Positions 2,580 to 61,954 of a stretch of 64,000 nt of DNA are shown here, in pieces. The stretch's first letter is position 1. The number at the start of each line of letters is the position of its first letter. Made by a program: the position numbers and the translations under genes. A model generated the notes under the pieces. It had not been told where the DNA came from. It saw only the letters and a program-made list of their open reading frames with translations, and did no database searches. This stretch comes from Antedon mediterranea (lineage: Eukaryota; Animalia; Echinodermata), in assembly GCF_964355755.1 (NCBI RefSeq), contig NC_092670.1, positions 17,842,795 to 17,906,794 of the forward strand. The letters are read 5' to 3'.

Positions 2580-6862
<4,283 letters not shown>

Positions 6863-14882: not shown

Positions 14883-15046
14883 AGCTGGCTTCCCACTTGG
14901 ACGTCACGCGATGACATGCATGCGCCCAAGAATTCAAATAAGTTGACTAATCACAAGCGAGACAATACTGAATAATCCATCACGTGGTAATTGGTCAATT
15001 GTATTGGGCTTAAGTCCTTGCTTTGCGTCCTAGTGGGAACCAAGCT
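14883..15046. mobile_element. Harbinger-like MITE family (AGCTTGGTTCCCACTAG TIR)
   Basis: TIRs plus internal TTGACCAATCACAAGCGA inverted motif; related copies at ~16315-16455, ~19785-19965, ~20229-20376, ~24160-24279, ~28374-28509, 29120-29367. Confidence 0.75.
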
Positions 15047-15254
15047 TTTAAAAGAGGTAAGTTTTTAGGTATTGTACAGTATATGCAAAGGTAATTGGTA
15101 TATTTATATAAATTTTATTTATTTCTACAAGTTTTTCTAATCTGACTTTCTACTTGTCATCGTTAAAGTCGTTAAAACTATATGTTATGGTCTATCATTC
15201 GGAAAAAAACATTATATTTGCTGTACACAATGGGAATACTGCAGTAAAGCTGTA

Positions 15255-15617
15255 TTATGCGCAACCGCATTCCTCAACAATGAGACCATGTATTTGGGCT
15301 GGAACAATTTCGGAATTTTCCGTAAAGTACAAAAGTCTAAGGTCGGCATATTTACGCGCCGAACAGCAAGGAATGGGACTGTTGTTCAAAATCAATAATT
15401 GTGTGTGTCGGTTAAAACGTGAAAAGCTGACAGAACAATCGCCACTACAATAATGTGTTTTAAAGGAGCGAGGTGCTAATATCCAATCCCAGCCGATTTC
15501 TGCAAAGTCGATAACGATTGGATGACGACAACATGGCTTCCTTCCAACGTCTGGACATATTCGTTTTGGTGTTGGTCGCACTTTACGTTTTCGTAGGGCA
15601 ATATCTAGAAGTGGTCT
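15255..15617 (-). CDS. TGF-beta gene A, alternative terminal exon 3b (second mature ligand)
   Basis: Acceptor TTTATATAG|AGA in phase 0, compatible with the exon 2 donor at 17079. Encodes RPLLDI, a basic cleavage region (RKRKVRPTPKR) and a complete 9-Cys cystine knot ending CGCA-stop; 446-aa precursor. Confidence 0.8.
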   Translation of the reverse strand, partial: RPLLDIALRKRKVRPTPKRICPDVGRKPCCRHPIVIDFAEIGWDWILAPRSFKTHYCSGDCSVSFSRFNRHTQLLILNNSPIPCCSARKYADLRLLYFTENSEIVPAQIHGLIVEECGCA

Positions 15618-15672
15618 CTATATAAACAGATACAGAAATTTTTAACATTCATGTACAGTATTTAAATTTTAA

Positions 15673-18600
15673 TCAACGGCAGTTGCAAGATTCAACTATC
15701 ATATCGGCGACGTTTTGTACAACGAACCGGTCCTGATTGTCCGTGTAATATATGATAGTAAGAGGCTTAAAACTGGTTGGGGAACAACACTGGGCGAATG
15801 AAGGATCATGATTTAGGTACAGAGAACTCCCAGGCGGCATCATTGCGCTGATTGGACATTCGCCTTTACAGTAGTTAGCATTAAAGGAGGTCGGAGCTAT
15901 AACCCAGTCCCAACCAAATTTTCGGAAGTCAATTTTCAATTCCTGCATGCAGCACACACTGCTGTTGCCATGACATTTGTGTGTGCGTTTGTTGTGTGAT
16001 CGGCCATGTCGTCTTTTCTTGGTAAATTCCACAGACAACGCTGGACTCTGTGGGCAAGAAAATAAATTGATTGACAACATGGCCATTTTTTAATGAATAA
16101 AAAACAATTTTTATTGTCGCACGGTGCAGTAGCCGATCGATTCTAGGCTCGTCTAATCAGTATAAAAATGTATCTCCAGATCCCAAAAGTCCAAGCAGCC
16201 TGTTGGTGGTGTGGTCGCCGCAGGGAGGAACGTGACAAAGTAAAAGGGTGTGTCTAAGTTCAATTTATATATGAGTGCGTACATTATGCTAATGAGTAAA
16301 GGTAAATGTTGTTTATGCAGTTTTGTCTGGAGAGACTGACGTAAGCGCAACATAAGTGATTTGACCAATCACAAGCGATTATTGAACTGTCGCTTGTTAT
16401 TGGTAAACTATAGTCTACGTTTGCGCTTGCGTTGTGGCCTAGTGGGAACCAAGCTTAAATACGCATTAAAAAACTTTAAGACTGGTTCTACCAGGAGAAA
16501 TAAACAAGCTTCATAGACAGGGACAACAGGAGTGTGGAAAGCCAGTGTTTATCAATCGCCAGTACCTAAGTGATATATTTCCCTTAAAACGCTACATTCA
16601 CATCACACCGCCGACCTATTGAATAAATATTTAAGGATTTCAAATTAAGTGGTAGATATGAAATGTGAACGTGGAATGTGAACTAAAAAAGTTGATTATA
16701 GAATTAGATATATTAACTGGATTCATGAGTTATTCAATCAGCAAAAACAATCTATAGAAATTAAATCAATGCTACTCAACCAAATCATTAAACAGCAATC
16801 GATTTTCTATCGGTAAAGCATTCAGTGTCAAATCCAGGATAATGAAGTGAGGATGTTATTGTTTTACCGAAATGTAGGCCTAAACAAAATTTGACTCCAC
16901 AACCCTCCTGCATTACTAACATTTAATGTTGATTAATATTTTCCATGACACGTACACAACGACCCACAAGTCGTTCGCGGCGGCGCTCAAAGGTTGTTGT
17001 AAACATTTTGTACGCGTGCGCCGTTTCCTTTCACGATCTAGATAACTATTTAAAAAAAAGATGTAATATTATATTTACCCGTCTGTCATTTGGACCAGTA
17101 ATCACTACATTATTGTCTGCTCCGTCGGTAGCTTCTATTTCAATATACTGGTACTTGGTGTCTGTGTCCTTCATCCATTCCATCATCAATGGTTTAGCGT
17201 CAAATTGTTCCCAACTTCCGTCAGTAGTACTTAAAGAAATTGTCTTTTCTTTGTACAATTTCCTTTTTACCGGGGAGGTGGGTGTAGCGGGGATGATCAT
17301 GTACACACGAAGACTGGTCACTGTGCGTTGTACTACGTCCGCTTGGCCTGCGTACATCCACAGATTGGCCGCTGCGATGTCCTGTCCGTCCAAACCAATA
17401 TTAAAGCACACCACATTTGGAGACATCATATCATCTTTAGCTACGTAGAAAAAACGACAACTCTAAAGCTCTGTCTACACTATTAAACTTTATGTGAAAA
17501 AAATGTGATGTGTTCATATATGTACATAATGATTTCATATCACTACCATATTTGGGAATATCACTACCATATTCATATTCATAACACTTTTTTGTCAAAC
17601 CATTTCGATAGTGTAGACGGAGCTAATGATGTTATAGGTTTGCTTATAAGTTCCTTAATTACTCGTTAACGGGTTGCTTTTCGTCATAACACCAAAATAA
17701 AATGTGTTTTCAGCATCTTCGACTACGTTTCGTACAATAACGGATGAAGTTGAAATAAAATTTTACACAATTTAGCCTTTGGCTACAATGTCAATTTTCG
17801 TTTTATTGAATAAAACCTTGAATTGAAAAATCATTGACGAAACATTTTGTTTTGTCCATCCCAGGAGTGCTGGTTTTTGTTGTTTTTTTTTCAAATTGTT
17901 AGGCCTATCGTAGTTTTTGTATCAATGTACACTTTATGTTGCCAAAAACGGTTTTTTTTTCAAATAGCAGAATCATTTTGGTGCAGCTTGAAATTCCATC
18001 AATTTATTATAACCAGATATTTAGTCATAATTCTCAATTTTAGAATAAATGTACGTTCATCTCATAAATGTGGAAGGCAATGGCAGTAGAATAATTAAAA
18101 ACACTCTGATAGACAAGATTAACTTTAAGTAACTTATGTCTATCAATTATGTCTTCAATAATCAATATCGTAGTAATTATAGATTAATGAAATAAAAATT
18201 GTTCGGCGTAACAACGAAACGTGTTTGCAAAAATGTTTTTATCAAGCTTTTATTTTAATTTCATTATGCCGTCGAAAGTTCGGCCAAGGACTTACGAAAG
18301 TTGGAAAAGCTCTCGAAAAAATCCGTAAACAACAGGTAGCTGATGTGAACTACTTTAAAAAAGGATTAATAAATGTATGGATGATGTGATACCGTAAAAA
18401 CTAACGTAATCTAATCTGTTAAACGTAATCTATAACTAATTTCTAAGATTTGCTTTAACACTGTAAATGATTCTATTGATGTCTTCCTCTTTTCTCTATT
18501 GTTAATTCTTTTGAATTAAGAAAGAACAAATAATAAATATTTGAATCATACTTACGTTCCGTTGCCAATATGAGAACTCTTTGAATTGAAGCAGATCTGC

Positions 18601-19171
18601 TGGTATCGTCCATGTCGGTGTATTCGACAGGTTCGTCTGCGAACATTTCTTCGTCTTGAATCTCTGGAATTTGATGAAGGTGCTCTAAGATCGGTGGGTT
18701 GTCTGGTATCGGTCGCTTGGCGATTTTCGGTGGATGTGTCAGTCCGAGTTTATGCAGTAAAGATGACTTGATCAGTTCAATTTGCCATTTAGTTACTCGT
18801 TCATCCTCACAATTTGAACAAGTTAATGTTTCGTTAGCAGTAACTTCGATTTCCTCTTCGTACATTTCGTCGTATAAGGAGCTTTGATCGTCTGTTTCCT
18901 GTTGGTCGTCAGATGAACGATGATCTTCTGTTATGCGTTCATCTTCCGTTGCGCGTTCATCTTCCGGTGCGCGATGATCGTCCGTTTTGCGTTCACCTTC
19001 CATTGTACGTTTCTCTTCCGATGCGCGTTGAACTTCCGGTACACGTTGATCTTCCGATTGGCGTTGATTTCCCGTTGCGCGTACATCTTCCGTTGAAGTA
19101 TTGTACGTGCGTGGAGATGCCAACCGCATCGGAACGAGAGAGACGAGCAAAATAAAAATAAAGATTGACAT
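15673..19171 (-). CDS. myostatin/GDF11-like TGF-beta precursor, gene A (exon 3a isoform, 450 aa)
   Basis: Exons 19171-18556 (phase 1), 17440-17079 (phase 0), 16047-15673. Signal peptide, CxxC, IELIKSSLLHKLGL latency helix, LWMY, basic cleavage region, 9-Cys mature domain with GWDW. The phase 1/phase 0 three-exon layout matches myostatin. Confidence 0.9.
17467..17624. mobile_element. MITE with AGCTCTGTCTACACT TIRs
   Basis: Inverted ends seen; a second copy at ~43666-44085 carries ~260 bp of extra internal sequence; fragment near 40070-40115. Confidence 0.7.
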
Positions 19172-19233
19172 CTTGTTGTTTGGCGTCCTACTATAAACTT
19201 AGAGTGATGTTAAAGCTCATGTGTGTATATATC

Positions 19234-19270
19234 TTATATAACCTATGCAACCATTTATCATCGACCAATC
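19234..19270 (-). promoter_or_regulatory. gene A core promoter: TATA box plus CCAAT box
   Basis: Minus-strand TATATAA ~65 bp upstream of the ATG; CATCGACCAATC (19259-19270) is identical to gene B 23517-23528. Confidence 0.6.
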
Positions 19271-20557
19271 GAAGGAGAGTTTTGTGTTTAACTTTGTGTG
19301 GCTGTAGACATTCAGATACATTATTCATTAAAATATATCTCTAGAAATCTTCATATCTGGATCAGTTGTCAAAGTAACCAACCGTATGTAACGTGTATCA
19401 TAAAATATAGTTCGGTTCATTAGAATTGAATTTGAATGGCTATTGAAATAAGTGTCTCACCCGATAGCAGTCGTTTACCCTTTGCTTGTTGTGACCATTT
19501 CACCTTTCTCGGTCTACTTTTATGGCATAATAACTCGTTTTATATACAAAAACATCGTTTGTATTAACATTTCAAAGTAACATAAATGTTAATGTATGTG
19601 TTGTTGGACCTAATAGATTAGTCTGTATCCACCTATTTACTTGAACTTCCGTAGTTCACGTCATTCAAGTCTCCGTAATGTATATTTTCATTTGACTGTA
19701 AAAAGGACCTTTCTGGTCTGATTTTGTTACTGTTACAAGTCGTACAATCAGGTTTTGAATGCGTGTAACAAATTCTAGCTAATAGGACGCAACGCAAGGA
19801 CGTTGTACTAGTAACGTACGTTATTTGACCATTCACAAGCAAGATTTGTATACATTTTGTTTTAATAGTTTTTCATCATAAATTGGGATGTATTTTTCTA
19901 AGATAAAATTGATTGATTTAATGGTCAAATGACTTGCGTTGCGCATACTTCTTTGCGTCGCATCCGTCGCAATGTGGTGGTGGCGCGCAGTGAACTCAAG
20001 AACCAAGAACATTATACGAAAAATGAATGAAGAACTAAAAAGTGAATGCTTTGCTAGTATTTATTATTGAGACTGTGAACATTTTAATCAACTCTCTATT
20101 ATATTAACTAAGCTACTATTTTATTTTACTGAGGTATTAAAAATACCATAGTCAAAATTCTTAATATACTGGTTACAGTTTGTTTTTTTAATCAGGTAGG
20201 TTGTGAATGTATTCCGGCAAACAATAACGCTTGGTTTTCACCTTGAACGTAATGCAATAACGCAAGCGTACCGCACGCAATTTGAACAATCACAACGTGA
20301 TGGATTATCCGAGTCGCTTGTGATTGGTCAAACTATCCTGCATTGCATCTACGTCGTTCAAGAAAGAATCAAGCTTTGTCGTTTATACCTAAAATGGTGT
20401 ACATCGTCGAATCAGATCGATCCTGATCCATCGTAAGATGATTTTGATTTAAATGCGAATTTTGTATACCTTAAAATTCCAACATTGGTTTTACAATGAA
20501 AACTAAAACAAGACTATGTGAACAGCATCTATGGCAAAGCGTTTATGATCACGTATG

Positions 20558-20932
20558 TTAGACACAGCTGCAGTTATTAACAATCAGTCGTGGAATCGTA
20601 GCAGAAAGAATTTCCGCATTTTCCGTAAAAAAAAGTAATTTAAGATCACTAAATTTGCGCGCCGAACAGCAAGGAATGGGACTGTTGTTCAAAATCAATA
20701 ATTGCGTGTGTCGGTTAAAACGTGAAAAGCTGACAGAACAATCGCCACTACAATAGTGAGATTTAAAGGAGCGAGGTGCTAATACCCAATCCCAGCCGAT
20801 TTCTGCAAAGTCGATAACGATTGGATGACGACAACATGGCTTCCTTCCAGGCCCTTCTGGACACACACGTTTTGACGGTGACCGTGTCATGTGTGATTTT
20901 CGACTTGTAAGTTCAATATCTAGAAGTGGTCT
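20558..20932 (-). CDS. TGF-beta gene B, alternative terminal exon 3b (second mature ligand)
   Basis: Acceptor ATTTATAG|AGA in phase 0. Encodes RPLLDIELTSRKSHMTRSPSKR then a complete 9-Cys domain ending CSCV-stop; 378-aa precursor. Confidence 0.8.
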   Translation of the reverse strand, partial: RPLLDIELTSRKSHMTRSPSKRVCPEGPGRKPCCRHPIVIDFAEIGWDWVLAPRSFKSHYCSGDCSVSFSRFNRHTQLLILNNSPIPCCSARKFSDLKLLFFTENAEILSATIPRLIVNNCSCV

Positions 20933-21320
20933 CTATAAATATATAAAAACAATAATTCTGAAAATAGTAATGTATCTTATTATTTTGCGATATAAACGTA
21001 ACTATCTGTTGCCAACTTAATTGATACAAAGAAGAAACAAGAATCTGACGCGCGCGTACATAAAGTCAACCATTATTTATTTGAATGTTGTGTGTAACTA
21101 ACGATAACATGGACAGGTTATTAGTAGGCTTATTATGTCCCTTGATCTTAGCATTCTCGTCCTGCCCTCCCCCCCCCGTGCCATTTCTTCCCCTTTGAGC
21201 TAAATGATGGAATATAAAAAGTATTTTTATTTATTGTAGACACGTACAACATACTCGTTTTATTATTTTTATAAAGCCTAATTATTAAAGTTCACTACAA
21301 CTAGTTACATAATCAGAACA

Positions 21321-23431
21321 TCAATTACAGAGACACGATTCCACAATCATATCTGGAACCTCATCGACTACAAATCGGAAATTTTTATCCGAATAGATCA
21401 TAGTCAATGGCTTTAATTTAGTTGGTGAACAGCACCGATTAACAGCCGACTCTTTACTTAAAAACCATGACAACTCTGAAACTGACGACGTCATCACCGG
21501 GCTGATCGGACATTCGCCTTTACAGTAGTTAGCGTTAAAAGAGGTCGGAGCTATAACCCAGTCCCAACCGAATTTTTTGAAGTCAATTTTCAGTTCTTGC
21601 ATGCAGCACACACTGCTGTTGCCATGACATTTGAGCGTGCGTTTGTTGTGTGATCGGCCATGTCGACGTTGGTTGTTAAATTCCACAGACAACACGGGAC
21701 TCTGTGGGCAAGAAAACAAACAACATGGCCTTAATTTTTGCTAATCTAAATTTTTACTGAATATAGACACTTCAAAATTACACGACGCGTTGTGCGCCAA
21801 ACTCATGCTGTGACGTCGTCGCCAAAAATAAGACGAATTATAAAATACGCCTTGAAAACGCAATGAAGCTGTAAATATGCGCATGCACATTTTACGCTTG
21901 GTTTGCGCCTACAATAATAAAACATTTCGCAGGGAGGTGGAATAAGTGTTCCTAAGTTGTCATGGTTGGTTGAATATTACGTGTAAAGCCGTACAACACC
22001 AGGCCTATTTATTGAGTAGAATCTATTTGCTAATATTAAACATTGTATCAATAATAGAATAGTCTGGACAGAGAGTAGACACAAACTTTGACGTAACGCG
22101 TGCATTAAATTCTGATGAAAATGATACGGATTTTAGTACGCGCGCGTTAAAATAGTGATGAAAATGATACGCGCGTCAATGTTGTGTATTCTCATTGCGT
22201 CACTGACGATTATATATTACACTCACCCGCCTATCATTAACTGCAGTGACGATCACATCATTGCCTGAACTATCCTCAGCTTCTATTTCGATGTACTGAT
22301 AGCCGGCGCCTCTATCCTTTATCCATTCTTTCACTAAATGTTTAACGTCAAGTTTTTGCCATTCCCCATCCGTAGTACTCAGTGAGATCGTCTTTTCTAT
22401 GTACAATTTCTTTTTTTGTGGGGAGGTGGGTGTAGCGGGAATGATGTTATAAACGCTGAGACGCGTGACTGTGCGTTGGACGACCTCCGCTTCGTGCACG
22501 TAAACCCATAGATGAGCTGAAGCGATATCTTTGCCTTGTAAATCAACGTTGAAGCAAACCACGTCTGATGAGTTGATTTCTATGGGAGCTATGTGATAAG
22601 ATATAATAATGCCTATGTTATTTTTTTTACATTTTAATACAAGACTATGAAAACGATTACCAAGCAACAGAGTATTTAACAACGTCAACGACGTTGTGAT
22701 ACCTTTGATCCACAAATACCCTATTTCACAATTTGGCGTAGTCGCAGAACCTATCACAACGCCAATTTGGCTGTTACTAATTCTGAGAGAAGACGATTGT
22801 AAAATTGCCGGCAGCTCTGTTATTTTGGTCGTCGCTTAACTACTAAACAAACAGGTTTGAAAAAAAAAATTAAAAAATATATCTATAATACATGATGTGT
22901 GTGGATGGCAGCGTGAATAGGCATACTTTGACGCGCGCGTTCAAATGCTGATAATAATGAATACGCGCGCGTCTACTTTGCGTCTTTCATATGTCACTGC
23001 AGACTATATAATAACTGAAACTGATACTTACGCTCTGTTGCCATGATTAATATACGTTGTATTGATGCTGGTGCGTAAGAGTCGCTTGTATCTGGATCGT
23101 CTGCAAACATCCTTTCCTCTTGAATGTCTTGGAACTGCTGAAGGTGTTGTAACATTGGCGGATTCGTTGGAAGTGGTTTTGTAGTGAAGGTTGGTGGTTC
23201 AGTCATTCCAAGTTTTCTTAATATCGAAGCTTTAATCATTTCGATTTGTAAGTCTTTCCTTCGATCTATGTCACAATCGTCACAAGCAGTCGTGGCTGGT
23301 GTCGTTGCATTTTCATAATCAACTTCTGTAATAAGTTTTTCTTCGTCAGAACTCTCGTGTGTGTGATGCGGACATGCCATAAGCAAGGGAACGTTGATAA
23401 CAACCAGTAGAAACATACATGATGGCAGCAT
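21321..23431 (-). CDS. myostatin/GDF11-like TGF-beta precursor, gene B (exon 3a isoform, 380 aa)
   Basis: Exons 23431-23032 (phase 1), 22588-22227 (phase 0, 362 nt as in gene A), 21701-21321. Signal peptide, CDDC, IEMIKASILRKLGM, LWVY, RRHGRSHNKR, 9-Cys mature domain. Confidence 0.9.
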
Positions 23432-23528: not shown

Positions 23529-24739
23529 ACGAGTTTAAATCAAATCAATTAACAGTCGGTGATTCTGGGTAGAAGTAAACTTTGTAAGTAGCTCATTGCA
23601 ATGTAATTAATAACGTTTTGTAATTTAAATGATTGTTTACCTTTTCACCTTTACATGTTTCAAACATTAAGCAGCAATAGGTATGCATTTTTTCTACCAA
23701 CATGGTGGTCTTGAAAACAGCACGGGAATCGAACTAAAGAACGAGCCCGCTCACTTGATTCCGACTACGAATATGAATAACACCCTGTTCTTATAAAATG
23801 TACTTAATTAACCCATTTCTTCCAAGTATCTCCAACAACCAACATTCATCTTATTACTGTTTCCTCTCCACTACCATTAATGTCACTCACTTTCGTTTAT
23901 GGGTTGTCAAATAAAATAAACGTTTACTTCTTTTGTTTCCTTTTTCTTTCAAATAGTCTGGAAAATAATAAAATGTATAATTATAATTATATTGATTATT
24001 TTAACCATATCAAAGTAGACCTAACAAAAGACAAAACAGTAGATTACAATTGTTACCGAATGCAATACTGATTTGTAACACGGATTTGTCCGAATTGGAC
24101 CTCCAGTGATTCCCCTAGTCTTCTTTCTGTTCCACTCGCCCTGTTTGTTTGTTTTTTTTGCTTGGATTCCCACGCAACGCTGGACGCCAGACGCGACATC
24201 ATAACTGTCGCTTGTGATTGGTCAACTCACCTGCATTTGCACCGATGTCGTTGAGTTGCGTCAAAGTGGGAACCAAGCTTTAACTTTAGATACACTCGTG
24301 ATACATTAATTTATTTGAAAAGATATTACGTCTAACCTCTATGATAGAAGGATCACACGCACATTGATAGGCCTACATGTCAACTTAAATAAACCTTATG
24401 TTCTGCTACATATACAGTTAGTGTTTATTAAATTCAACTAGATAAAGTTGAAATAATATTTATCGAAATAAACTATGAACTAGAAAACCATTTGGATATG
24501 ATTGTTGGTGGTAGATCAACAATGTTTAATATATTTTTTTAGTCGCGTGCTCTCATCTCACTGTGTCGGTCGGTCTGTCGGAGGGTAAACAATAACTCAA
24601 TGTAATATATTAGGCCTACTGTACTTGTTACTCATTATTGAGTAGGCAGTCCTTGACTGGTTCAGTTGACATAATATGCATTGCCTTTGTTGAGTGAGAG
24701 AAAGCCTATATAATGATATACTGTATATAAACACATTAG

Positions 24740-40942: not shown

Positions 40943-41428
40943 ATCTGGTAATAGGCTAATGATTTTAACAACATGTAGTATGCTTCAATTTTGTTTTGTT
41001 AAATTTACTTATATTTTCCAATGTAGAAAACATAATATGTTGAAAGATAATGGTTACTGAAACTTAGCCATATTATAGTGGATTTATTGTCATAGTACAT
41101 GTATAAAATGATTTTAAAAAACACCATATTTTATCCTCTTTCGTAAATATTATTTTTTCGTAGAACGAAATGTATTTATTAATTTTTTTAATTAAATCAT
41201 ATAGGCCTAGGCCTATATCAATTAAAACATTTTAACCACCTCTCTTTATTTTTCAATCAATGGGTTATATTTTTATGGCTTAATCTATGATTTCAATTTT
41301 TTCAATAATTCATTGATATACGACGGACGGCGCGCGAGTGAATAAACACCACCACTACACAACTTAACCAGCTATATCCCCCCAGCGAACGAAAAATGTG
41401 TGATGGCCAACGCTTCGGATAAATTTCG

Positions 41429-44400
41429 ATGTCGCGTTTGGGCATGTCGGTATTTGGGGACTTTGTAAATGTCTTTTCCTCCTACATGGCGCCTGGAAAT
41501 CTAAAGTGTAACTTCATGGCAAAATCAGAGAACAAATCTACTTCAAACCAACTAGTGTCTCGTAAAAATAACGTGCGAAACAACTCATTAAATTCGGACA
41601 TGGCGAACAAGCCCAACCACCATGTTTCAGACGCGATGGGCATCAACAACAACACCGCCAGCGAACCAAAAACTCTAGGCCTAGGCCTACCAATGATGGA
41701 AGCTGGCGTTGATGGTAGGATACGCTTTGACGATGTTGCAAATTGCGGAGATGCATCAGAATCCAAATTAGATTCACAAGTGACTCATCTTAAAGGACTC
41801 CTTATGCTTCATTTAGACCTTATTCAACAGCAACAGAAAGATTTGCAACAAAAAGAAAAAGAAGTAAAAAAATTACGCGATGAAAAAGAAACGGTAATTT
41901 TTTTTTCAATGAAGTTATTACCGGGCATACTACATAGACAGGAGGGTCAGGGCCCGGGCTTTGTTTTAATGACACACACAGGCAGGCATGTTGAAAAGAT
42001 GGACAAAATGTTTATATTATCCAAATTCCATCCACCAAGTAACAGCAGGCCTAGCCTGTAGTAGTTATTGTACAAAAGATAGATCTATTTTATTATGATT
42101 GATGCCATTGTTGTTACATATAATTAATTGGTCACATTTAAAGATTCAAAATGACCCTTGCACCCATGAAGATGATGATAAGAAAGACCAAAGGCAACAA
42201 ACATTCAGCATCAAACACTTTTTTTGTTCTTGCAGTTGTTATGTCGGCTACAACGTATGGAACGCCGAATGTCTCTAGCAAGTAAAAGTGCACCAATCAA
42301 AAATAAGAATTATCCAACCACTCAAACGACTCCAGTAACGCCAATAAAAACAGAAACACTTTCAAAACGGTAGGAAAGTACTGTGTAAATAATAGAATAA
42401 TCAGTCCATAACAAGTTTTTCATGCATTGACAGGTCGCATTGATTAATAAGTAAAATTGTTTACTATATAGATACCAAATTACCAATTATTAATCTTTCT
42501 ATTTTTTAATAGTGCCCTCTAGAGTTTGATGTAATTTTCAAAATGTTGTAGCTTCCTCTATAGTTTGGCTTTCTAAAATCGTGCTATTTTATTTTACCAT
42601 AATAGTGCACTCTATAGTTTGATGTCATTTTAAAAATGTTGTAGCCCCCTCTAGAGTTTGCGCTTCAAAAATCCTGAAACACTACAGTATTTTATTTTTT
42701 AAGGTTCTATTGTGTGAGGTCTGTTATGATAATAATAAATGAGACTTAAATATAGCGCATTATTCGAATTTGGAGTTAAATTCCAGGGTGCAGATCCAGG
42801 ATTTTTTAAATGGGCATTGGAGTGCATTTTGATAATAATATTGTCTGTCAAAATAGATTTTTAAAAAAAGGACTTCTATCCGCCCCTAAATCTGAATATT
42901 TTAAAACTTTCACAGGAAGGCTACAAGTACGCCACATACATCTAAAAAAACTTTACTAGATACAATAGACACAAAAACATACAGATGTGGGTCACCTTCA
43001 AAAATAACTAAGGATGGAAGTTCAACACCTGCAAAAAGGCGATATAGACGATTTAAAAAATACAAAGAACTCGGTGAGGATAAATTCCATCGGACGAAAG
43101 TCCTGTACCCCTCTTTCAGAGATCTTAGAATTCGTGATGAGGAGGATGATGACCTTCCTGTGGATTCGGCATATGTAATAGGTATAATATGATTTATTAT
43201 TTTTTAATTGGTAAAATAAATTATATTTATTTAAGTGCCTGAACGTGGAGAGGAAGATGTAGAGAATGAATTTTAAAATAGTTGTCCTGACCAAGACTAG
43301 AACTCTCCTGTTAAGTGTTATGTTTAAAGATACTCTTCCTTTAGACCACCAATAGAGCTTTTTTGTGGATTGTATAGAAATGCAGACACAGCTACAATAA
43401 TAACCCTGAGGCTGATAAAATGGTTTATCACCAAGAAAATGTTTTTTCTGTTTGTAAAAAAACTTTTATTTAAATAGAAAAAATGTTTATTATTTGACAA
43501 GACTTTATCAATGTTTTATTTCAACAGTACCAACATGGAGAGTGTCACACCTTAATACGTCGTCAGATGATTCAAATTCCAGTGAAATAGAGGTACAGAA
43601 GTATTATAAAACAATGCTGATATTATTGTTATGTACATCAACTTAACAGTGGAGATCCACTCTAAAGCTCTGTCTACACTTTCAAACTTTGTGTGACAAA
43701 ATGTGATGTGCCCATATAGGGACACAATGATGTCATATCACTGCCATATTTACTGATATTATTTTATTGTCCATAGTAATATAAAATGGAAATACATTTG
43801 AAACTGGCATGTACTATAAAAAATAGAGTTACTGTAGTATATACAAATTCAGAAGATTACCAAAATATACAAAAATACTTTAAAAGCTAAGTGTTATATA
43901 TTTATATATACACATTAAAAGCTTTTAACATAAAATTATTAAACTATTACAAATGCAGTAGCAATTTTTTTTTTTTAAAGAAAGCATTGCACAATGATAT
44001 GTTGACTCTACAGTTTCACTGCCATACTTAGGCACATCACACCTTTTTTTGTCAAACTAGTTTGATAGTGTAGACAGACAGAGCTTTAAGGAAATCTTTC
44101 AGAAAAGTGGGGTGGGTGGCTGTTACCCCAGTGTACTTTTTCATCTCGGCCAATGTCATCGGGGACAGAAGATTGGTGACCCTTATGAGATATGACAAGT
44201 TGTTATATATTTCTAGTACATTTGAGACAGTATTTAGCATATTATACAATGCATTATGTTTATTGAATAGTCAACAAAACTTCTGCGGAAAATAATTCTT
44301 CTTTCAAAACAAAAAATGGTGTTTGCACAGCACTAGTACTATTAATAAATTGTTAATTTGTTTTCGTTTTATAGAAAACAGACGACCACACGGTAGAAAT

Positions 44401-55908: not shown

Positions 55909-56133
55909 TCCACTTAAGGCACAAAGTTTAAATTATAGGCCTACACCTGACAAAACTGTTTGCTCTTTCTTCTAATCGGCAATTGGTTAAAACAAATGTA
56001 GCAAGAAGCTGATTGGCTCAATGTTTGTTCAAAACCTCCTACATTTAAAAAATCATTCACTTTGCTTGCAAAGTTCCAATCACGGTGTTGTTCGTTACAA
56101 TCTGCCTTCTTTCTATTTTTACTTATTATCATT

Positions 56134-59100
56134 ATGGCCGATCATGAGTTTGATGCCTTGAGAAACTATCTACAAAACAACGTTTATCCTGTAAATTATT
56201 CTGAAATATTAAAACGAAGTTTGCGACGGAAAGCCAAGAACTTTACAATTCTTCGTGATATCTTGTATTACAAACAACATTCTGGTAGATTGTTGCGTGT
56301 ATTGTTACCGAAAGAAAAAAACGAAGTGTTAAACAGTATCCATAAGCAGGCACATGGTGGTCACTTGGGTGTCAACAAAACGTAAGTTTAAAGTTTGTCA
56401 ATTAAATAATATTTAAGCTTCGATAAGTTTCTGGGTGACTTTAAAACTGTTTATATGTTTGGCCAGGTGGAATGCCATCCTGAGATGAGTATTAGTAATT
56501 AGTACAGCATTGTTTTTAAATGATTTTATACGTAATTTTACTTTCTGTGGACCACAGAATTCGAAACAAATGATTAAATGAATGAATTAAATGAATAATA
56601 ACTAATACTTATCAATTGAAAAATGTATAATGACCGTGTACATTATGAAGTTAGTATTTTATATATAGATTCAAACATATTTTTATACCTCCATGAATGA
56701 AAAATATGTTAAGTCGATAATAATTTCTACTCAATATATTATCGCAATTAATTGTATAAATATATTGAAGTTGAACATAAAATATCACATGTAAAAAATA
56801 CAAAACATATATTGGCATTCAATAATTAATCAAAAATGTTCCGAATATGAGCACTGTTTCAATAATTTGACAGATTATTATTATATAATTTACACAGTGC
56901 TACACAACGCATATATCTTTAGTTCAAAATTAAGATATCTCTTTTAATAAAGATAGATTATTTCAATTGAAAACTAAGATGTCTTACTTTTTAAAAGAAA
57001 TATCTATGTTAATAGATATTTTTTTGTAGGCTTATTACACCTCGAAAAACCAAGAAGAATACAGTACAACTAGCTCTATCTATAATAGTAATGTTTTAGT
57101 TTTATAACAGTTCATATACGGTACTCTACACGTGCCCACTGCATAACTAACACAGAAAAAAATCCACTTGTGATATTCCGAATGGGACAAGAATCTTCCA
57201 TTCTAAATATCTTGGTAAGTAAGTAATATAGAGATATCCCTCATGAGAGATATCTTAGTTTTAAATAGTGATACAAATACTTCCCGAATGAAAACTTATT
57301 CAGGTCTTGGTATAATAAATATGTTCAATATTAGTTGCTCATTCATAATGCAAAAAGCCATATCAGTATTAACTTTCGTTCATTTAAAATGTATACTTAT
57401 GAAAGAAAACACAATTTGACAAAAAAAAAGGTAAGGAAGAAGACTTTTATTATGTAACTTTAAAGTGGATTATTACATTTTTTTTAGGGAATACTTCTTT
57501 AAAAAAAACGCATTTTCAATAACAAAACTAGTTTCCAATCCCCCGGTAATGGAGTAAAACCACCTGCAGCTTATGTAATGAAAAAAATTAACACCATGTA
57601 GAACGATCAACAACGAATGTAGGAACGAAAATTGCATCCCAGCTAATGTAGGACTATCGCCAGCTAATGTAGAAAATATATATTTTACAAACCTAAATGT
57701 CTAAATCATGTGCAAATGCATCTGTTTACTTAGCTATCCATCTATCCACGTCTCGTAACCGACCAACTTTCTAAAACGACCACACATCGTAAGCAACCAA
57801 CTCTTTTAAGGGACCGTTTCTCATAATCGACTTCCTCTCTCGTAACGACAACTTTTTTGGGTGACCACCTCTATTAAACGGCCATCGTCTCTGTTAAGGG
57901 ATCGCTTCCCATAATCGACCAACTATTGTAAGTGATCACATCCTCTCATTATGGACCGCTTCTCATAATCGACCACCTCTCGTAGTAAGCGACCACCTCT
58001 CTTAACAACCACAACTCTCGTAAGCGACCGCTTTTTATTTTCGACCGCCTCTCGTAAGTGATGATCTCTTTTAGAAGACCACCATATCTCTAAATGGACC
58101 GCTTCTCATAATATACCAACTCTTGTATAAATCACCTCTCTTAAGTGACCACTTCTAATAAACGACCTCTCTGTTAGGAGACCGCTTCTCATAATCGATC
58201 ACATATCGTAAGCGACCACCTCCCTTATCGACCACATCTTTCGTAAGTGACCACCTATTTTAAAGGACCACTACCTCTCGCAATCTACCATTGTGGCTCA
58301 CTAAAAAGTACCCGGTTTCCTTAATAGGGTGTCCTCTACATTTTAAAAATAAATAAATTTAACCAGTATGTAGTGTTAAAACGTATATATTTCCCCTTGT
58401 TTATTTTTTTAAAAAAGTGGCGATTTTTATATCTACTCTGTCGCACATTCACCAAGCGTACACAATAATTCTAGTAGGACAATTAATTATTTATACTTTT
58501 CAAGTTAGTTTTTTATTGCCTGAGTGAATTATTACCAGATTGAGGGCGTAGTTATTTTGTATGGGAGGCTGCACTCAATTTGAAGTTTATATGGGGGTAT
58601 TTAGAATGTAAACACGGTACAATCAGGGAGATGTAAATCTCCCTGGTACAATGTGACACGGAATCATCACGGACTGATGGACATTTTTCATAGAAGGTAT
58701 CTTTTCCCTTTTCAATATTCATTTATCATTGTCAAATAAAAAAACTAGAAACATAGATAAATATTAAAAGTTAATTAATCAGTTGTGCCCAGTGCTTGCC
58801 TTAAACGAAAAGTTAAAATATATGGAACGCCAAACTGTAATGTTATTATAATGCATTGATGAGAATGGTGATGTGAACTGCGGTAATAAATAATAAATAA
58901 TATTAAAAAACAAAATAAAATTAAAATATTTAAAGAATCCATAATACAGTTTTAAGGTCAATAGTAAACCTACAAAGAGATTGAATATCATCAATACAAT
59001 AAACACTTTTTTTTTTTTTTAACAGTTGGAAAAAGATACGCGAAAGGTATTATTGGAAGGGGTCATTTGATGGTGTTCGTAATTTTATAGCCGCCTGTGA

Positions 59101-61954
59101 TCAGTGCCAACGGAAAGAAGTTTTAAAAAAAGCAAAAGTGCCACTTCAACCTATACCCGTAACAGATACTGCTTTCAGACAGATCGGTATGGATATTGTT
59201 GGGCCTTTGGTAAAGACAGAAAATGGTAAGGTATCTCATGACAAATTACTGAAAAACAAAAATGCTGTGACTGGATAAAAAAGCTAAATCAAAACGTAAA
59301 AGTAAAAAGCAAGAAGACATGAATGAAATACGTTCAGAAAACTTTGTAATTCATTCTTCAGGGCCTAAAATTACAGTTAATAATTAGTTCTGTTCGGCCT
59401 TTATTGTAATAGGGCTGAACTTAAATTTATTATTGTAAAGGCACAAGCGCAATTTCTGTGAGGTTTCTTGAAATTGTTAACTAAACTAAAATTATGACAG
59501 TTCTCTTTTTTACACTGTCAACAAAAACTAGATTTACCAAGAATCAGATGCTCTTATTATTGTCACCGGATTTACATCGATTATGGCTATACTGTAATAA
59601 TCTTTATTTCTGCCTGTTTTAATTTGATCCAAACCATGACTGGGGTAATACTGTTCAGCGCATAGAGGTTTTACAACATTAGGCGCTATGTAAATCCACG
59701 ATATTATTATTGTTCTTGTTCTTATTATATTTATTGATATTAATATTGTTATTATTATTGTTATTTCATTCGTACAGTTCGGGTGTTGTACATCTCATCA
59801 TGACATTTTGACACTACTATTATTACGGCTTATTATATTATTATTTGCTGTGTTTCAGGTAATCGGTACTTACTTGTATTTACGGAGTACCTTACCAAAT
59901 GGGTGGAAGCTGATGCAATTCCAGATAAATCTGCTAAAACAGTGCTGAGATCTTTTATTGATTTTGTCTGCAGACATGGAACACCTTCTATATTGATTAC
60001 AGACCAGGGTAGAGAGTTTTGTAATGAGCTGAATGACAGCTTCTGTAAGCTGATTGGGGTAGACCACAGAGTTGCCTCACCATACCATCCTCAAACAGGC
60101 GGGCAAACGGAGCGCTTTAACAGAACACTTTGCACAATGCTTATGACGTTGACCAACGCAGACCAAAATGACTGGGATATACAACTCCCATACGTGTTGT
60201 TTGCCTACAGAACATCCGAGCACAAGTCTACGAAATGTGACCCATTCTCATTAGTTTACGGTAGAAAGGCTGTGTTGCCTGTAGAATTACGTATTCCCAT
60301 CGTTTCGTCTAATAAAGATGACATATCCGGAACTGTTCCTTTAAAAATAAGAGTGGACGCTTTTTTGAAACTCAAAGATTCAAGGAGAAAGGCATCAGAA
60401 AATATCAAAAAAGCACAGAAAAAGCAAAAACATTATCATGATGCTGGTGTTAAAAGCAACACGTACTATGCAGGAGATCAAGTGCTCTTGCAGAATTCCA
60501 GAAATTTGTCAAGAAAGGGAGGCAAACTTAATGCTCGATGGACTGGTCCATATATTATAGAAAAAGTCCTCACTCACAATACATATCGACTAAAAGGAAG
60601 AAGGGCTATTGTTAACGGAAACAAGATCAGACATTACAAGTCCGATAAAACAACCTCTTTGAACTGTCCATCATCAAGCACTAAACAGAAATGTAATACC
60701 AATGATAAGCATCTCCCTCCAAAGAAACGAAAGCGAACGCCAGACATCCCACCTGAAGTAACGCACCATGATAACATACCTACATCCAAGAATGGTGATA
60801 TCACACCGGATGATCACATTATTAACATACCTACATCCAAGAATGTTGATGATAACGATAACAGACCTACATCCAAAAATTATGATATCACACCGGATGA
60901 TCACATTAACATACCTACATCCAAGAACGATGATATCACACTGGATAATCACGATAACATACCTACATTAGACAATGATAATGTCACACCGGATGATGAC
61001 CATGACAACAGTAGGCCTGTATCTGATAGTGATGTGGTATACCTCAACACGAAAACTTCAAGAAAGTTATTCTTTCCTGTCGATGCCAATTGGCAGCTTG
61101 AAAAGGCAGCACCATTTGGTATCAATGTCAAAAATTTTCACAAAACTCACTTAAAATGTGAAATGGACAAGGCAGCCAGGCCTACTAAAGTTGTTAATAT
61201 GAGAGGGGACGGCAACTGTCTTTTTAGGGCTTTGAGTTATATTCTCTTTGGTGTCCAGAACTACCATGTAGTTGTACGGGATTACATACTAAACTATATG
61301 TCCATGAACAAAAACCTATTTGAAAAAATTGAATCCAGATCATTTGAACGATACGTGGAAGACACGAGAATGGGGGAATATGGGACATGGGGTTCGGACA
61401 TCGAAATCATGGCATTTGCGACCATGTCAAATACGAATGTTTATGTTTACAGTAAATATGGAAGAAGGAAAGGGCTTCCACATTATGAATGGTTGAAATA
61501 TGCACCAATAAGTAATCAGTTTGGTGATTTAGTATCTGAAAGAAACATCTACCTATCAAACGTATGTGCACACTTTGAGCCTGTCCTGGATGTAGACAAG
61601 AAAGCTTATGATGCTGAATTAAAATACACTCGTACACCATACGCACCAATCAAAAACCACCTTGCACGGAAATACTGGGATATTGTATCCGATGTGACCC
61701 TCAATGCTGCTCTGGTAGATAATTACGAAGATGAAGCGGTAATGCGTTCCGAAGGCATTATGGACGTTATATACGTATCTGAATTCACGGACACACATTA
61801 TGACATTGAAGCAGTCAACCATCTAAAAGATGATATCGATCCAAATATATTCAATTTGCTTTGTGACATGGAACATTTCCCGGAAAGGATTCATCAGAGC
61901 AACAATGAAGTACCTGGACAATTATATGTTGATTCATACAACGTCACTCTTTAA
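56134..61954 (+). CDS. Ginger1/GIN-type DDE integrase-transposase with C-terminal OTU protease, 847 aa, two introns
   Basis: Exons 56134-56381, 59026-59225, 59859-61954 join in frame. HHCC finger (IHKQAHGGHLG...CDQC), DDE (GMDIVGP, ITDQG, QTERFN), YHPQT, WTGPY, OTU motifs GDGNCLFRALS, WGSDIE, HF. No gag, protease or RT. Confidence 0.88.
57527..58290 (+). mobile_element. single arm of the foldback family inside Ginger intron 1
   Basis: AGCTAATGTAG repeats and GCTATCCATCTATCCACGTCTCGTAA shared with 53700-53830, followed by a GACCACCTCT array. Confidence 0.65.

Follow-up and report, generated by a model that had tools for sequence, protein, structure and literature searches.

Ligands of the TGF-beta family usually diversify by duplication of whole genes, prodomain and ligand evolving as a unit. 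In other signalling systems exon choice exchanges parts of the product: in calcitonin/CGRP transcripts a common N-terminal precursor part is followed by one or other of the terminal exons, so that the gene yields two secreted signals related to each other, and in the Drosophila Baboon receptor isoforms, which serve activin-branch signalling, exon choice exchanges the whole binding domain. Here we describe a locus of the feather star Antedon mediterranea (Echinodermata; contig NC_092670.1 of assembly GCF_964355755.1, positions 17,842,795 to 17,906,794; 'the window' below means this whole stretch of 64,000 nucleotides) in which two tandem myostatin-like genes, A and B, each carry one prodomain followed by two ligand exons, termed 3a and 3b. 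We consider it very likely that the locus is real and conserved, each gene probably being expressed as two ligands. Unlike the calcitonin/CGRP products, which are short peptide hormones acting on G protein-coupled receptors, the crinoid products would be disulfide-linked dimers with a prodomain fold completed by the alternative exon; Baboon differs in lying on the receptor side and in using internal exons.

Among ligand genes, the closest are those of myostatin/GDF8-GDF11, which have three exons with the ligand in exon 3. Members of this subfamily signal by way of ActRII and ALK4/5/7 to Smad2/3, and tolloid opens their latent complex. The crinoid genes resemble them in the grouping of the prodomain, in the nine-cysteine knot, in the structural matches of 3b and in the precursor fold match of 3a. 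They differ in that each gene has two complete alternative ligand exons in place of a single terminal one, with both ligands on long branches, in that 3a has no wrist His-Thr motif and an activin-like N-terminal spacing, and in the basic knuckle residue of 3b. The nearest case of splicing is that of sheep MSV, where a cryptic intron in exon 3 reportedly swaps the ligand for a novel 65-amino-acid tail without a knot, and the variant antagonises myostatin (PMC3846833). There too splicing exchanges the mature domain behind a common myostatin prodomain, but the replacement is no second cystine-knot ligand with its own acceptor, as the crinoid genes have. In work on the ACVRII antagonists Panda, Lefty and inhibin-alpha, single residues of knuckle and wrist are reported to decide, in an echinoderm, whether a ligand acts as agonist or antagonist (PMC11239237). 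Exons 3a and 3b likewise differ at both knuckle and wrist positions; unlike those antagonists, which are products of separate genes, both lack the knuckle Pro and both have the dimerising Cys pair. Searches of full-text literature, with most subscription papers and supplements outside their scope and most results judged from listings, turned up neither a TGF-beta-family gene in which two complete ligand exons alternate nor any description of the crinoid locus, in agreement with a preliminary description of the sequence, which knew of no described example. The splicing logic is known, and the swap of whole dimeric growth-factor domains appears to be undescribed though automatically annotated.

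Gene anatomy and conservation in two feather-star families

The two genes lie in tandem on the minus strand, gene B upstream of gene A, and comprise eight exons in total (Table 1). In both, intron 1 is in phase 1 and the GT donor of exon 2 in phase 0, as in vertebrate MSTN. Each of the four terminal exons begins behind an AG acceptor, stays open in frame, encodes nine cysteines and has its own stop. The exon coordinates of the preliminary description, its shared phase-0 donor and its two intact phase-0 ligand exons per gene therefore all hold. Pfam TGF_beta was matched by each terminal exon (E 1.5e-25 to 2.7e-21) and TGFb_propeptide by exon 2 of both genes. Exons 3a and 3b are 31–36% identical to each other, and 33–36% within a gene, which bears out the strong divergence noted earlier. 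A tblastn search of the whole 64 kb with nine proteins found no TGF-beta or prodomain exon beyond the eight, the sole extra match being of 24 amino acids (E 0.98); since no further prodomain exon was found, 3b is, as previously described, without a prodomain of its own inside the window.

Four models spliced in silico were letter-for-letter identical to database proteins P0001, P0002, P0004 and P0005, whose source label is 'growth/differentiation factor 8-like isoform X2/X1 [Antedon mediterranea]', so that each gene is already annotated publicly with its two isoforms. Another such pair, the third, was found in Anneissia japonica (XP_033103220.1 and XP_033103221.1), which belongs to a different family of Comatulida. 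Its members have the first 256 residues in common and then split, at the same junction, into a 3a-type and a 3b-type domain; Anneissia is known here from proteins only, and we infer its exon order. All six isoforms match PF00688 and PF00019, with a signal/prodomain part and a C-terminal cystine knot, and nine cysteines are retained in all six ligand exons. Identity to Anneissia is 70% for 3b, 65–67% for 3a and 55–57% for the last 215 prodomain residues. Both ligand exons are thus more conserved across families than the prodomain and therefore behave as protein-coding sequence under constraint. As to which Antedon gene is the closer orthologue, the mature domains point to B and the prodomain slightly to A. 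Word-indexed protein searches and a HMMER search revealed no crinoid members beyond these three pairs, and among 190 proteins only the three crinoid pairs have a common prefix of at least 100 amino acids yet a different ligand, in a set whose clustering at 50% identity would hide others elsewhere.

Between the A and B copies, the ratio of non-synonymous to synonymous substitutions (dN/dS) was 0.24 for 3a (95% bootstrap 0.13–0.41) and 0.21–0.22 for the prodomain; for 3b, which the preliminary description had singled out for this measure, it was 0.37 (0.24–0.61), indicating purifying selection. The corresponding dS values were 0.40 for 3b, 0.80 for 3a and 1.2–1.7 for the prodomain, and the two 3b exons have identical runs of 64, 50 and 47 nucleotides in common. 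Near-identity of the paralogues is patchy, being confined in 3a to the 5' part and in 3b to the core (84–91% of nucleotides versus 71% in exon 2). This pattern, the low dS and the identical runs are what gene conversion between the ligand exons would produce. The cross-family comparison is independent of such conversion between A and B, and, judged from these substitution patterns together, both 3a and 3b are under purifying selection. The preliminary description had taken the intactness of both types after the duplication as an argument against a dead duplicate; with conversion this argument is weaker for A and B, while the constraint itself is borne out through Anneissia.

Contigs, proposed choice of acceptor and predicted products

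Contigs were placed from two (X1 and X2) of five runs containing the stretch; none of the five is recorded as RNA, and run X1 (43% of words) is presumed to be RNA. Contig 7 of run X1 joins position 23032 to 22588, that is, with intron 1 of gene B removed, whereas contig 15 of run X2 crosses the same intron unbroken. Contig 7 ends two letters past the exon 2 donor of gene B, and these letters do not fit the intron. Exons 3a and 3b have their first two letters in common and differ thereafter; if both junctions were present in one graph, contig 7 would therefore stop at the very base where 3a and 3b diverge. Contigs of run X1 also cover B3a and B3b, each with its 3' flank, as well as positions in the B spacer, and its contig 2 runs from within A3a through the stop and the 55-nucleotide spacer into A3b. 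A3a and A3b are bridged in two studies, by this contig and by contig 9 of run X2. Contigs of the DNA-like run X2 are gap-free over B exon 1 to 3a, B3a to B3b, B3b to A exon 1 and A3a to A3b, so that misassembly is disfavoured, though run X2 may be the assembly's own source data. The end of contig 2 at 15590 was considered as junction evidence and not counted, being one base off a simple merge with an exon 2–3b path. Two of 30 bins were uncovered in run X1 (19255–19571 and 21791–22107, the latter in intron 2 of B) and were unused as evidence. High-copy short repeats, some with inverted ends, lie in introns and spacers and dominate the depth and the joints of both runs.

The A spacer has no AATAAA or ATTAAA hexamer and the B spacer has four. 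Because of this hexamer-free spacer and the contig running through 3a into 3b, gene A looks more as if it chose between 3' splice sites ahead of a common transcript end than as if it had two independent last exons. Both its isoforms probably share one 3' end and differ by acceptor choice, 3b forming the 3' untranslated region of the 3a message; the B3a message may end on its own. The last-exon ligand switch of the preliminary description accordingly stands in part: one prodomain with either ligand is supported by the RefSeq pairs in two families, by purifying selection and by the fork-shaped contig end, and two independent last exons look the less likely arrangement for gene A.

When the six acceptors were folded, a shared fold was predicted only at the two 3a acceptors, with an outer stem, whose intronic arm is retained in gene A and gene B alike, and an inner stem in which the CAG of the acceptor itself is paired. 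In gene A this hairpin has −37.5 kcal/mol (z −4.96, none of 200 shuffles as good); the four other acceptors gave z values of −0.1 to −0.5. Seven bases at each 3a acceptor are predicted to be paired at at least 0.97, and 3% of 90 sampled background YAG sites reach at least 0.9. Inverted-repeat scans showed no docking/selector pairing common to both genes except this local hairpin. With two non-independent copies and without covariation, the predicted hairpin as a switch is a lead and not a result.

Both gene B isoforms were modelled by AlphaFold2 (alignments of 57 rows) as complete precursors, with a mean predicted local distance difference test score (pLDDT) of 81.9 and 81.7. In each model the prodomain arm is completed by strand 257–262, which exon 3 contributes. 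The wrist block has a pLDDT of 58–62 in 3a and 70–80 in 3b, and the best Foldseek match of the 3a precursor model is human pro-myostatin. A cleavage site had been proposed for every ligand exon. Basic residues are indeed present, and the canonical RxxR is found in all three 3a exons (RHGR) but in only one of the three 3b exons (A3b, RKVR), so that, on sequence, we are less sure of the processing of 3b than of 3a.

The three 3b copies are identical at 20–22 of 22 wrist positions, the 3a copies at 6–11 of 24–25. The wrist His-Thr/Ser motif, present in 108 of 151 other matches, is lost in 3a. Columns were placed on BMP2 numbering by a correspondence that we partly assume. Counting four residues on from the CxGxC cysteine, one finds Phe in 3b, as in GDF8, and Ala, Pro and Ala in 3a (Ala or Pro in 7 of 151 others). 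The knuckle column holds Arg, Lys and Lys in 3b (basic in 9 of 149 others, Ser or Thr in 91) and Thr, Thr and Lys in 3a, with Thr in both Antedon copies. In published work, type I receptor specificity is located in the wrist (PMC5336696), Pro or Ala at the position of BMP2 L51 is reported as the mark of ligands without type I receptor binding, and Ser or Thr at the position of BMP2 S88 as that of ACVRII agonists (PMC11239237). From these columns 3a and 3b are predicted to differ in receptor use, 3a being the likelier weak or blocking ligand, with the Lys of Anneissia 3a and the basic 3b knuckle allowing other outcomes.

Taken together, we propose that one myostatin-type prodomain (exons 1 and 2) has a single exon 2 donor that would be spliced to either ligand exon. 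Use of the proximal acceptor would give the 3a isoform and leave 3b in or beyond the 3' untranslated region, for gene A almost certainly the former; if this acceptor were skipped, possibly aided by the predicted hairpin masking it, the 3b isoform would result. The beta-strand predicted to come last in the prodomain arm would be supplied by either exon, and a normal precursor would be completed. Our reading is that the switch would be one between 3b, with the myostatin wrist (the type I site) kept, as a signalling ligand and 3a as a weak or antagonistic one; both the agonist/antagonist split and the hairpin switch are predictions. A fuller version, which we put forward only tentatively, combines these steps: one gene would make its own agonist and antagonist (or a myostatin- and an activin-type ligand) by a hairpin-gated exon swap, the common prodomain would favour 3a:3b heterodimers, in which one type I receptor site would be sound and the other impaired, and the arrangement would have been kept across families and then duplicated as a unit. 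The heterodimers and ten dimer types of the preliminary description are arithmetic only.

Origin of the ligand exons and rival explanations

In a quick tree of the prodomain (33 rows chosen from the matches; Shimodaira–Hasegawa-like approximate likelihood ratio test, SH-aLRT), the crinoid sequence clusters with myostatins (SH-aLRT 83, unstarred), outside the activin clade (97). A more careful tree of the mature domain used 48 rows chosen from 160 and 105 columns, with no TGF-beta, BMP, Nodal or Lefty rows; clades were labelled by tree position, two activin-side clusters being named inhibin-beta and two others labelled GDF8-like. The free maximum-likelihood tree put 3b beside a four-row maverick-like clade, with 3a and 3b both on long branches. 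Constrained searches beat the free tree in log-likelihood, with 3b among myostatins by +9.34 (approximately unbiased test, p-AU 0.74), with 3a and 3b together by +2.55 (p-AU 0.57) and with both among myostatins by +0.25 (p-AU 0.50), so that this tree leaves the origin undecided. The term 'myostatin-like' used earlier fits the prodomain and 3b; for 3a the signal is mixed, activin and myostatin. We somewhat favour the view that the pair goes back to a myostatin exon 3 that was duplicated in tandem ahead of the split between the two feather-star families. Hemichordates have several divergent 'GDF8/11-like' genes (P0016, P0018, P0025, P0060, P0124), and P0124 (Ptychodera) and P0086 (Lingula), though labelled GDF8-like, fall in the activin clade, so that such labels are unreliable for orthology.

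With the same splice switch, 3a could instead descend from an activin gene whose ligand exon was captured by intron 2 of a myostatin gene, the choice then lying between an activin-type and a myostatin-type ligand; we regard this as possible but rather unlikely. The free tree places 3a among activins at 98/90, FastTree agreeing, a placement that we do not accept since the constrained trees are as good or better. For both 3a exons, inhibin beta chains are the top PDB matches, by a narrow margin over GDF11 (those of 3b being GDF11/GDF8), and all three 3a exons have C-x6-CC without the myostatin Pro after CC, a spacing found in 19 of 24 activin-clade and 2 of 114 myostatin-clade rows. Against capture, 3a has the myostatin-like W-x-W spacing (present, as are nine cysteines, in the mature domains of all six exons), W-x-x-W occurring in 20 of 24 activin-clade rows; 3a has neither this activin-type spacing nor the long wrist or the activin-type prodomain. 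B3a aligns with GDF11 gap-free over 101 residues, whereas activins need gaps, and 3a and 3b begin at the same codon position and phase. In cross-validated profiles, trained on unequal sets of 24 activin and 114 myostatin rows, 3a scored −7 to −15 bits, at the myostatin edge and outside the held-out activin range (−3 to +50; held-out myostatins −66 to −11), and 3b scored 17–30 bits towards myostatin, well within the myostatins.

Several observations weigh against the reading proposed here, and some of them favour the view that only one isoform matters, exon 2 being spliced to 3a while 3b, as 3' untranslated region, is reached by leaky splicing on rare occasions and owes its open frame to gene conversion, or conversely 3a being an exon that is mostly skipped. 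The X-isoforms of RefSeq are products of computation, and the RNA support behind them is not visible. An exon 2–exon 3 junction is absent among the joints listed (15 of 176), all of which lie at non-exonic positions, repeat joints dominating; the fork at the end of contig 7 is inferred, its two terminal letters being unseen; and run X1 also covers part of gene A intron 2 and so contains DNA or unspliced RNA. The A/B comparison of dN/dS is blurred by the conversion-like identical runs, A and B not being independent, and these runs in 3b, like the contig through A3a into A3b, suit the one-isoform view. So does the missing RxxR in two of three 3b exons, B3b and Anneissia 3b having only dibasic KR/RK. 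The gene B hairpin (−26.4 kcal/mol, z −1.5, 14 of 200 shuffles as good) is weak by itself, and the B3b acceptor is likewise predicted to be paired (6 of 7 nucleotides). The Lys of Anneissia 3a at the knuckle, in place of Thr, blurs the receptor contrast, and the activin placement of 3a in the free tree belongs here as well. We nevertheless think the one-isoform view improbable: conversion between A and B cannot yield the identity of 3b and 3a to Anneissia, above that of the prodomain, and an untranslated region would not be expected to hold frame and protein over two families, with nine cysteines in all six exons. Less probable still is that 3b belongs to another transcription unit, with unseen upstream exons of its own, by read-through of B into A exons or because separate genes were collapsed in the assembly. 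In favour of this are the small size of the window (64 kb) and the chance that run X2 is the source of the assembly, but there is no other prodomain exon in the window, the A spacer is 55 nucleotides, the layout recurs in two paralogues and in the annotation of another family, and A3a and A3b are bridged by contigs of two studies.

Table 1. Features of the Antedon locus in window coordinates
Feature	Position	Strand	Remarks
Gene B exon 1	23032..23431	-	Signal peptide and N-part of prodomain; phase-1 donor; spliced to exon 2 in run X1 contig 7
Gene B exon 2	22227..22588	-	Prodomain arm; phase-0 GT donor common to 3a and 3b; run X1 contig 7 stops 2 letters beyond donor
Gene B 3a acceptor hairpin (predicted RNA)	21657..21730	-	Exon 3a paired with an intronic arm; CAG paired in the inner stem
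Gene B exon 3a	21321..21701	-	Last prodomain strand; 9-Cys ligand behind RHGR site, wrist divergent; RefSeq isoform X1, P0004
Gene B exon 3b	20558..20932	-	Last prodomain strand, dibasic KR site without RxxR, 9-Cys myostatin-type ligand; isoform X2, P0002
Gene A exon 1	18556..19171	-	Signal peptide, ~70-aa acidic/charged insert, N-part of prodomain
Gene A exon 2	17079..17440	-	Phase-0 GT donor
Gene A 3a acceptor hairpin (predicted RNA)	16002..16084	-	Inverted-repeat pair I20
Gene A exon 3a	15673..16047	-	Isoform X1, P0005
Gene A spacer	15618..15672	-	55 nt, A3a stop to A3b acceptor; without AATAAA/ATTAAA; spanned by run X1 contig 2
Gene A exon 3b	15255..15617	-	RKVR site; isoform X2, P0001
Near-identical blocks, A vs B	15303-15622 vs 20606-20937; 15835-16066 vs 21489-21720		
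High-copy short repeats	14940-15048, 16340-16460, 17460-17620, 19800-19840, 20280-20335, 24200-24285		

Exon 1 of gene A has, behind the signal peptide (19100–18880 on the minus strand), a low-complexity charged insert of ~70 amino acids with short repeats such as EDERATEDERIT; its frame is intact, and it is absent in gene B and Anneissia. Elsewhere in the window, the plus strand carries the first coding exon of an ADP-ribosylation factor gene (2580–3029; Pfam Arf, E 5e-17), an exon with an MSL1 dimerisation domain (41423–42061, E 2.5e-6) and, at 59804–61954 with 56002–56385, a mobile-element open reading frame with an integrase core, a weak SH3 and an OTU-like protease domain, presumably resembling a Ginger-type or long terminal repeat-derived integrase element.

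Implications for ligand evolution and feather-star biology

At this locus one promoter and one prodomain apparently serve two ligands that are about one-third identical. It may be read as a natural domain-swap experiment on the prodomain's say over folding, dimer partner and latency, and it informs how agonist/antagonist pairs could arise within one gene. The isoforms sit unremarked in RefSeq as X1 and X2, and the same pattern can therefore be screened for across annotated genomes. Feather stars regenerate their arms. In brittle star regeneration Gdf8 is reported to be repressed (PMC11310086); an isoform switch of the kind proposed here would escape gene-level counts.

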